The notes: generated by a model not told the origin, from the sequence alone. Shown: positions 17,564 through 19,508, counted from the stretch's first letter. The stretch: 49,599 bases of DNA from an uncultured Saprospiraceae bacterium (GCA_937139495.1 CAKZQC010000009.1:1-49599); one strand, 5' to 3'. Numbers and translations are program-made.

Positions 17564-18952
17564 ATGCAACGAATTATAATCAGGAATTTTTTGGGAATAA
17601 AAGAAGCAGACATTCGTATCAATAAGGTATTGGTTCTGATAGGCGAGCAAGCTAGTGGCAAAAGTACCTTAGCTAAGTTGATTTATTTCTTTCAGACCTT
17701 AAAAGATGATATTTTTGATGCCGTCTATACAAATGATACTGATAGCGATTTTGATGACGATTTTTTTTTAAAAATAGTAGCTAAAAAATTTTATGAATAT
17801 TTTGGTTTCCTTCATGGTTGGGATAGTTTTGATGTAGTGTATTATTATAGTTCTGGGAAAATAATGTGCTTAAACCATAATTCTAAGAAGGGAACTTTTA
17901 CCAAAGAAACAAATAAGGAATTTGATGACTTGCTTTATAAGACTTGCGATAACGCAATGAAAGAACTATCGGGGTTGTCCTCGTCAAAGAATAGTAAAAG
18001 TGCTTATCTTAATCAAGCACAACGATTCAAAACAGCACAAAAATTCACTAAAAAACTGAATCAAATATTTGAATCTAAACAGGAAGACTACCTATACACG
18101 ATAGCAGGAAGAAATGCTACAGTAGCCTATTCAGGTTTATTTGAAAAATATCTTTTTCACGCCCTCGAATCTGCTATGGAAGAAAGCAGAAAGCAAAATA
18201 CTCCTAGAAAAAAATCCCAAAATATTGAAGAAATATTGATGTTGGATTTTATCAAAAAAGTAGAAACTATCAAAAGTCGCCTACTAAAATCAGGTGGTTT
18301 GGAAGGGATACTCGCAGAATCGGATAATAAAGCAGTACTAGAAGTAGCTGTATCAAAGATAGAAAGCATACTGAAAGGAAAATACATCTATGACAATGGA
18401 GAGGAAAAAATAGTGCTGGATACGAAAAATGATAGGTACGTCGCTTTAAAAAATGCCTCCTCTGGACAGCAGGAAATAATACGAATATTGCAAGATTTAT
18501 TTTTGATTATTGCTGACAAGCAACCCGTGATGCGCATTATCGAAGAGCCAGAAGCCAACCTTTTTCCTGTGGCTCAAAAAGCAGTCATTGAGTTGATGGC
18601 ATTGATGGTATCGAGTGTCAAAGATTCGCAAATTATCCTGACTACTCATAGTCCTTATATCCTTTCTGTTCTCAATAATTTGCTTTTCGCAAAAAGAGTG
18701 GCTACCAAAAATCCCGCAACACGACTAGCGGTGAACGCTGTGATAGCAGAAAATCAATGGTTAGACGCCAATGAAGTGAGTGTTTACTCACTCGGTAATA
18801 GTTATGATAAGCAGGCGGATTACTGTCGAAATTTATTGAATCCAAAAACAGGAACAATTGACCAAAATTATCTAGATAGTGTATCTGGTATGTTAGGAGA
18901 AGAGTTTGATGAACTATTTGAAATTCATGCTAAATCCTACGTTAATGACTAA
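17564..18952 (+). CDS. OLD/ABC-type ATPase (AAA_15/AAA_21-like), defence-associated
   Basis: N-terminus IRNFLGIKEADIRINKVLVLIGEQASGKSTL contains the Walker A. ABC signature SSGQQE. Walker B/D-loop MRIIEEPEANLFP. H-loop ILTTHSPYIL. There is no TOPRIM or nuclease domain in this protein. Confidence 0.8.
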   Translation: MQRIIIRNFLGIKEADIRINKVLVLIGEQASGKSTLAKLIYFFQTLKDDIFDAVYTNDTDSDFDDDFFLKIVAKKFYEYFGFLHGWDSFDVVYYYSSGKIMCLNHNSKKGTFTKETNKEFDDLLYKTCDNAMKELSGLSSSKNSKSAYLNQAQRFKTAQKFTKKLNQIFESKQEDYLYTIAGRNATVAYSGLFEKYLFHALESAMEESRKQNTPRKKSQNIEEILMLDFIKKVETIKSRLLKSGGLEGILAESDNKAVLEVAVSKIESILKGKYIYDNGEEKIVLDTKNDRYVALKNASSGQQEIIRILQDLFLIIADKQPVMRIIEEPEANLFPVAQKAVIELMALMVSSVKDSQIILTTHSPYILSVLNNLLFAKRVATKNPATRLAVNAVIAENQWLDANEVSVYSLGNSYDKQADYCRNLLNPKTGTIDQNYLDSVSGMLGEEFDELFEIHAKSYVND

Positions 18953-19508
18953 TCTAGAACAAGTGCTAGAGCAATTAGTTATTGCCTTTCCTGACAAGGA
19001 ACTAACTCAGTATTGTACTCCATTGACCGATAAGGCGATTTGGATAGAAGACTCAGAAGCATTGAATAGGATAGACTGTCATACGACAATTCCTACACAC
19101 CTGCCAGAGGAGCAAACATTCAGAATAGTGAATGAAAAGCAAAAAATAATTGCTATTTTAGCAATGGATGGTAATGGGTTGGTCGGAAATACACAAAGTT
19201 CTTGTGATGCTGTATTGTTAGATGAAGTCTATTGTTGTTTTGTAGAAATGAAGTATAATGCTACGGCAAGAGGAGGCAACGCCATATCTCGGAATCAGCA
19301 AAAGGCAATAAAACAGCTAAAAAATACAATAACTTTGTGGGATACTGCCTTAGGTTCAATTACATTTTTTAATGACTATAAGCGAGAGGCTTATATAGGA
19401 GAACCTTCGCATTATCCAAAATCAACGGCTTATGTCAATACTAAGAAAATAGAATTGTTGGAGCAGTACAACACGATGTTATTTCAATCTAGCAGCAAAG
19501 AATTTTGA
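18945..19508 (+). CDS. Small partner protein of the ATPase (possible TOPRIM-like/RloB-like effector); function unknown
   Basis: ATG at 18945 overlaps the ATPase stop codon by 8 nt. The ORF track start at 18906 gives a 47-nt overlap. The acidic strand IWIEDSEA may correspond to a TOPRIM first strand, but this is unproven. Confidence 0.5.
   Translation: MTNLEQVLEQLVIAFPDKELTQYCTPLTDKAIWIEDSEALNRIDCHTTIPTHLPEEQTFRIVNEKQKIIAILAMDGNGLVGNTQSSCDAVLLDEVYCCFVEMKYNATARGGNAISRNQQKAIKQLKNTITLWDTALGSITFFNDYKREAYIGEPSHYPKSTAYVNTKKIELLEQYNTMLFQSSSKEF

Follow-up and report, generated by a model that had tools for sequence, protein, structure and literature searches.

A stretch of 49,599 nucleotides from an uncultured Saprospiraceae bacterium (GCA_937139495.1, CAKZQC010000009.1:1-49599; the whole stretch is hereafter called the window) carries at positions 17564–19508 of its plus strand two overlapping genes, an OLD-type ABC ATPase (gene A) and a small stand-alone protein predicted to be a PD-(D/E)xK nuclease (gene B). 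Architecture and family assignment place the pair, with high confidence, in a divergent Bacteroidota and cyanobacterial branch of PDC-M29, a candidate family in the PADLOC collection. The two genes probably form a self-contained, horizontally mobile conflict cassette that acts as an ATPase-gated phage defence. What the present analysis adds is an identification of the partner at the level of its fold, a quantitative case for the pairing and a clean comparison with an empty site.

The ATPase and its overlapping partner

Gene A (17564–18952, plus strand, 462 amino acids) is a PDC-M29A-like ATPase of the OLD family (AAA_15/AAA_21), as judged from Pfam and PADLOC matches. In Pfam it matches AAA_15 with an E-value of 7.8e-29 (101.9 bits over amino acids 2–366, cut-off 32.1) and AAA_21 with 5.1e-18 (66.6 bits, cut-off 27). 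The four ATPase motifs that a first-pass annotation of this DNA had listed can all be read in the sequence, follow the canonical order of Walker A, signature, Walker B (IIEEPE) and H-loop, and do not vary across 36 aligned homologues with 43–52% identity. Specifically, the Walker A motif or P-loop GEQASGKST (amino acids 27–35; 17642–17668, plus strand) retains G27, Q29, A30, G32, K33 and S34 in every sequence, and the ABC signature SSGQQ (amino acids 299–303; 18458–18472, plus strand) retains S299, S300, G301 and Q302. The Walker B and D-loop region RIIEEPEANLFP (amino acids 324–335; 18533–18568, plus strand) is fixed at R324, E327, E328, P329, E330, A331, L333, F334 and P335, and the H-loop TTHSP (amino acids 360–364; 18641–18655, plus strand) at all of its residues, T360, T361, H362, S363 and P364. 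A has, in addition, a conserved C-terminal tail (amino acids ~375–462) with invariant I432, L437, D438, S441, L444, F448 and L451, a candidate interface with B. A Pfam scan of gene A detects no nuclease domain, TOPRIM included, in agreement with the earlier description of an ATPase lacking a nuclease of its own. The solved structures closest to it by sequence are the class 2 OLD nuclease 6p74 (9.4e-9) and PtuA of retron Ec78 (~3e-4).

Gene B (18945–19508, plus strand, 187 amino acids), a PDC-M29B-like predicted nuclease of the restriction-endonuclease fold, begins before gene A ends. Its ATG start and the TAA stop of A (18950–18952) fall within an 8-nt overlap, ATGACTAA (18945–18952, plus strand), read from the sequence and consistent with an independent gene call. 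The reading frame of B is open from a TTG at 18906, and the ATG at 18945 is the start supported both by the alignment of homologues and by an independent metagenome gene call of 187 amino acids. The proposal of a translationally coupled OLD/ABC-type ATPase with a partner of about 190 amino acids overlapping its stop codon is therefore borne out by the layout, in which the overlap of start and stop suggests coupling of the two translation events.

Profile searches say little about B directly. At E<=1 it has no Pfam family, and the HNH, Toprim, DUF4435 and DUF4276 models, with which the first-pass annotation had advised comparison, all remain blank, in keeping with its remark that the partner has no recognisable HNH motif. 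NCBIfam returns a weak match (0.034) to YraN, a PD-(D/E)xK family, and a word-indexed homologue search finds B itself only. An exhaustive HMMER search of 1.84 billion cluster representatives recovers a family of 121 proteins at E<=0.001, mostly 170–200 amino acids long; among the matches, P0124, P0196 and P0231 were rejected as spurious, being long proteins of fn3, PASTA or TSP1 repeats. Across an alignment of 98 sequences of this family, E101 and K103 are invariant, and D75, C87, D88, F99, Q124, A149, P158 and F171 are kept in at least 90%.

Supplied with the same alignment, AlphaFold2 yields a model of B with pLDDT 96.3 and pTM 0.92; the single-sequence AlphaFold prediction is useless (pLDDT 36.6). 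In the model D88 stands directly before strand 89–92, E101 and K103 end strand 96–102, and a long helix (111–136) bearing Q124 and then another strand follow. This predicted layout is that of the alpha/beta core of restriction endonucleases, with the D...(D/E)xK motif placed on the beta2–beta3 hairpin, as judged from the model and from conservation. Conservation and predicted structure together outline a putative active-site core at 19167–19253 of the plus strand, composed of D75 (19167–19169), C87-D88 (19203–19208) and E101-M-K103 (19245–19253). The top structural matches of the model are PD-(D/E)xK nucleases, and the same clan recurs in weak Pfam matches among the 98 family members, namely SduA_C in 10, HSDR_N_2 in 6, PDDEXK_9 in 2, and UPF0102. 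Searches of the PDB by sequence and by profile return only spurious matches to coiled-coil or designed proteins, an hhalign comparison of the B profile with an approximate FokI cleavage-domain sequence gives nothing (probability 0.2), and BFVD contains no significant match. Because the PDB and FokI comparisons found nothing, the assignment draws on fold, motif and weak family matches rather than on homology to a solved enzyme; on these grounds B is very probably a PD-(D/E)xK nuclease.

Conservation and mobility of the pair

The pairing of the two genes extends far beyond the window. It was followed in 80 genome loci encoding A homologues with 31–52% identity, which span Nostocales, Microcystis, Pseudanabaena, many orders of Bacteroidota, Chloroflexota, Ignavibacteriota and one 'delta proteobacterium'. 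Conservation of the partner beside homologous ATPases, on which the first-pass annotation had made its proposal depend, is found in 74 of the 79 loci with room for it, where an open reading frame (ORF) of the B family directly follows A on the same strand; in a further locus (L086) the place of B is taken by a more divergent ORF with D...ELK. Stop and start overlap in 43 of the 60 pairs with a near-full-length B (by 4 nt in 31 pairs and, as in the window, by 8 nt in 7), and gaps of 0–20 nt separate the genes in 16. The similarities of A and B to the window proteins co-vary (Spearman 0.70, p=3e-9), B diverging faster than A. Any given neighbouring gene family recurs in at most 7 of the 80 loci, which limits the module to two genes.

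Some genomes harbour more than one A homologue. Two separate loci were seen in single metagenome-assembled genomes of a Chitinophagales bin (L029, L043), an Arcicella bin (L053, L074) and a Bacteroidetes bin (L055, L070). In the Aureispira-like loci L002 and L003, which hold the closest A/B homologues, a 534-amino-acid OLD-like ATPase with a TOPRIM domain lies ~3.3 kb downstream of the pair, in the part from position 9226 onward; it matches SMC_N, AAA_15, AAA_23, AAA_21 and OLD-like_TOPRIM, so that two different OLD-type ABC ATPase systems lie close together in that genome.

Comparison with a related contig makes the mobility of the cassette visible. In the window, 2054 nt separate the OsmC gene from a gene of 265 amino acids. 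A marine-metagenome contig (L167) has the same gene order, with a T9SS-tail protein (52% identity), bshB1 (71%), OsmC (68%) and the 265-amino-acid protein (58%), and leaves 161 nt between the latter two, with no trace of A or B. Given this empty site, the pair constitutes a clean two-gene insertion/deletion polymorphism. Base composition points in the same direction: gene A has the second lowest GC content (0.346) of the 35 genes and the lowest GC at third codon positions (0.302), and gene B has a GC content of 0.363, the other genes averaging 0.409 (standard deviation 0.024). The visibly AT-richer stretch described earlier is thus real as a difference from the other genes, if only a modest one, and the horizontal acquisition deduced from it gains support from the low GC and the empty site together. 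No convincing direct or inverted repeats flank the pair, the window junctions are not alignable with those of the empty-site relative, and a promoter and terminator scan gives nothing above chance. The window contains no Rfam family and no tRNA, and hence no retron non-coding RNA and no tRNA integration site.

Distant versions of the cassette travel on phages. An A-like gene with an adjacent B-family ORF is present in 62 of 80 IMG/VR loci, many of which come from one large sample (3300045988). Some of these pairs follow a tape-measure gene (L087) or a portal gene (L092), or are bracketed by a major-head gene and, at the opposite end, by anti-repressor and tape-measure genes (L105), a placement typical of phage 'moron' genes that act in conflict between mobile elements. 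Another IMG/VR locus (L088) likewise has the distant pair inside a phage genome.

In the window the cassette is flanked by PIG-L/bshB1-like and OsmC genes, as had been annotated, by the 265-amino-acid ORF and by a gene with a Glu_synthase domain. The 265-amino-acid ORF (19573–20370, plus strand) has metagenome homologues at 25–58% identity and no Pfam match at 1e-5, and its earlier label as an outer membrane protein finds no backing there. Further downstream, an ORF of 827 amino acids (22247–24730, plus strand) matches MVP_shoulder (8.6e-31), Vault_3 (2.7e-7) and Band_7 (2.4e-6) in Pfam and appears, here in a Bacteroidota genome, to be a bacterial protein similar to the major vault protein of eukaryotes. 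Tandem genes of the GmrSD/DUF262 type, similar to type IV restriction, occupy 27669–29384 (GmrSD_N 1.2e-27, GmrSD_C 2.8e-11) and 29391–31889 (GmrSD_N 6.6e-19) of the plus strand. The GC content of the window is lowest in the stretch where they lie (0.31–0.35), the genes themselves having values of 0.356 and 0.338, and they look like a second acquired defence locus, ~8 kb downstream of A and B. Two genes of the minus strand, at 43775–44926 and 12239–12766, are also low in GC (0.359 and 0.379, against the gene mean of 0.409).

Proposed phage defence and the alternatives

The ATPase-gated nuclease mechanism proposed here follows two validated systems of the same architecture, HEC-02 and PD-T4-4. 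Coupled translation of the overlapping frames would supply A and B in a fixed ratio, and the two proteins would assemble into a complex in which A serves as sensor and regulator, or as scaffold, its binding and hydrolysis of ATP responding to some cue of infection. A would in this way gate B, presumably a Mg2+-dependent endonuclease of the restriction fold, and once licensed B would cut nucleic acid, most likely DNA, so that phage replication is halted either directly or through abortive infection. By analogy with these relatives, phage defence is the likely function of the pair.

Several observations weigh against this interpretation. Four loci carry A without B (L013, where a ParB-like gene lies downstream of A, and L029, L033 and L070), and B is split by frameshifts in three others (L016, L040, L072); in one locus (L041) it is A that is split. 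Solo ATPases and frameshifted copies suggest that the cassette has decayed repeatedly, possibly on account of the cost of its nuclease. Directly around the 80 homologous loci most genes are of the housekeeping kind, and there is no defence-island signal: 136 neighbouring ORFs include 3 relaxases, 2 AAA_21, 2 Toprim and 2 Uma2 proteins. In the window itself the nearest other defence-like genes are the two GmrSD-like ORFs, ~8 kb away. PDC-M29 moreover belongs to a set of 145 phage-defence candidates that are still untested (Payne et al., bioRxiv 10.1101/2024.01.29.577857) and is named in no main text found in our literature search, and gene A matches the PDC-M29A model with only ~100 bits over 462 amino acids, which marks the clade of this pair as divergent from that model. 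The missing defence-island signal does fit the remark that such candidates show less association with further defence systems (Payne et al., bioRxiv 10.1101/2024.01.29.577857).

Part of the same evidence could be accommodated by a selfish module, either addictive in the manner of toxin–antitoxin pairs or directed at competing elements, in which B would be a toxic nuclease and A its ATP-dependent antidote or regulator, and which would be kept by post-segregational killing or by the exclusion of plasmids and mobile elements. The solitary position of the cassette among housekeeping genes and outside defence islands, its presence/absence polymorphism, its carriage by phages and the relaxase beside it in three loci all suit such a role; frameshifted B and solo A copies fit a costly toxin, and AAA_21, which A matches, is described in Pfam as a 'putative AbiEii toxin, Type IV TA system' domain. 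HEC-02 and PD-T4-4, however, share the architecture and protect against phage, and addiction and abortive-infection defence are compatible with each other and inseparable on present data; a selfish module is considered unlikely. A housekeeping role in DNA repair or recombination, as in the ATPase–nuclease pairs SbcCD and Rad50–Mre11 or in RecN/RecF, is far less plausible. It could appeal to the joining of an ABC ATPase with a nuclease, to a MgsA/RarA-type ATPase as the next gene in Aureispira loci and to a very weak SMC_N match of A (E 0.013), but that match reaches 15.3 bits, far under the Pfam cut-off of 40, and the best ATPase matches are all to defence families, so that gene A sides with defence-type ATPases rather than with RecF and RecN, the grouping that the first-pass annotation had named as contrary to its proposal. 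Nor does a repair function agree with the absence of any conserved gene context over the 80 loci, the patchy distribution across phyla with several copies in some genomes, the syntenic relative without the pair (L167), the atypical GC of the two genes or the phages that carry their distant relatives.

A different suggestion concerns the partner rather than the pair: the first-pass annotation saw in the acidic strand IWIEDSEA of B a possible TOPRIM-like or RloB-like module, which, with DUF4435 as a further candidate fold for the effector, would make the system PARIS-like or AbiL-like. The best PADLOC E-value of gene A does belong to the 'AriA' model (4.6e-42), and in the B family D predominates within the FxIxD segment. 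The 'AriA' model looks generic, however, because it matches the same residues of A at the same profile positions as Pfam AAA_15. The strand itself (amino acids 32–39) lies outside the conserved columns; those kept in at least 90% of sequences, D75, C87, D88, F99, E101, K103 and Q124 among them, sit elsewhere, on the restriction-endonuclease-like fold. With Toprim, DUF4435 and DUF4276 matches lacking at E<=1 and no TOPRIM protein among the top structural matches, which are PD-(D/E)xK nucleases, the acidic strand is no longer tenable as the core of the effector, and this reading of B is scarcely credible.

Phage defence by an ATPase-gated nuclease remains the favoured interpretation. The description of the partner as an uncharacterised effector family stands as far as Pfam and NCBIfam are concerned, neither of which has a family for it; it does not stand for PADLOC, which already models PDC-M29B, nor for the combination of ABC ATPase and PD-(D/E)xK nuclease, which is a described class. 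A more ambitious proposal can be put forward only tentatively and is itself doubtful: B would form a distinct unnamed PD-(D/E)xK subfamily with a CD...ExK core, an N-terminal helix and a beta-meander, and without a Pfam, NCBIfam or close PDB relative, and the cassette would be a stand-alone immune module outside defence islands, widespread in bloom-forming cyanobacteria, Bacteroidota and their phages, which might respond to another trigger, or act on another substrate, than the characterised ABC ATPase–nuclease systems do, for example by cleaving RNA or tRNA in the manner of AriB or by being licensed through ATP depletion.

Validation of the pair would provide the first functional evidence for PDC-M29, among the 145 PADLOC candidates, and a biochemical identity, that of a PD-(D/E)xK nuclease, for a partner family that Pfam and NCBIfam do not model; it would open no new class of mechanism. 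Hosts in which the clade is common include Dolichospermum, Aphanizomenon, Microcystis, Pseudanabaena, Saprospiraceae and gut Bacteroidales, whose phages carry distant versions. Given the ecological importance of these hosts, the cassette could bear on the dynamics between cyanophages or Bacteroidota phages and their hosts. It also illustrates that cassettes of this kind can stand alone between housekeeping genes, where searches based on defence islands miss them.

Comparison with known systems

Beyond the apparently generic 'AriA' model, the best system-specific PADLOC match of gene A is PDC-M29A (5.8e-29), followed by PD-T4-4_A (7.1e-19) and then by PDC-M56A, NsnB, AbiLi, HEC-01A, GajA and PtuA. 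Gene B matches PDC-M29B models only (5.4e-9). The assignment holds across the homologues, PDC-M29A being matched by all 36 of the A proteins and PDC-M29B by 97 of the 98 B proteins (best E-value 1.2e-23). In the window the PDC-M29A and PDC-M29B models match adjacent genes on one strand, A preceding B, as found by a search with the component models, which does not apply PADLOC's own coverage and E-value rules. PDC-M29 corresponds to cassette CAS_00123 (FAM_00005>>FAM_02872), whose founding copies are embedded in BREX, DISARM or type I restriction-modification loci (Payne et al., bioRxiv 10.1101/2024.01.29.577857). The window pair shares with it the two genes and their order, an ABC ATPase followed by a small partner, and differs in the distance of its clade from the models (~100 bits for A and ~34 bits for B) and in its setting, as the window copy and most of its relatives lie alone among housekeeping genes. 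Embedding in BREX, DISARM or type I restriction-modification loci is not seen here, a feature that concerns the founding examples and not all members of the family.

Among validated systems, the closest in architecture are PD-T4-4 and HEC-02. PD-T4-4 of E. coli (Vassallo et al. 2022) likewise consists of a P-loop/ABC-type NTPase and a PD-(D/E)xK nuclease, defends against T4 and builds higher-order complexes; in the same work complex formation is called universal among 16 nuclease–NTPase systems (Ragucci et al., bioRxiv 10.1101/2025.07.10.664194). The PD-T4-4_A model is matched not only by A but by 34 of the 36 A homologues, whereas PD-T4-4_B is matched neither by B nor by any of the 98 family members, and A is closer to PDC-M29A than to PD-T4-4_A. 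HEC-02 (Hma-embedded candidate 2), an ABC ATPase with a NERD protein, has been validated with both genes required (Payne et al., bioRxiv 10.1101/2024.01.29.577857). It resembles the window pair in combining such an ATPase (HEC-02A matches A at 9.5e-12) with a stand-alone PD-(D/E)xK nuclease, in HEC-02 of the NERD type, and each HEC-02B model is matched, weakly (~2e-4), by at most 3 of the 98 B-family members; the window B, in contrast, matches neither HEC-02B nor Pfam NERD, and HEC-02 was discovered inside Hma systems.

More broadly, OLD-type ABC ATPases paired with HNH, PD-(D/E)xK or PIN nucleases have been described as a class of backup suicidal effectors, and an ATPase of this type serving as sensor or scaffold and coupled to a nuclease effector is also the common theme of PARIS (AriA/AriB), Septu (PtuA/PtuB), Gabija (GajA/GajB) and P2 OLD. 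The effectors differ. AriB is a TOPRIM protein, whereas the window B has no DUF4435 or TOPRIM match in Pfam at E<=1 and no AriB match in PADLOC; PtuB is an HNH nuclease, whereas B matches neither HNH nor PtuB, and A matches PtuA only at ~1e-12. In GajA and OLD the TOPRIM nuclease is fused to the ATPase, a domain that gene A lacks, and Gabija adds the helicase GajB, whereas near the window pair neither a helicase nor any further gene is conserved. The pair is already catalogued in kind, with an architecture that has been described and, in its cousins, validated, and it is set apart from PARIS, Septu, Gabija and OLD by a nuclease that is a separate, predicted PD-(D/E)xK protein.

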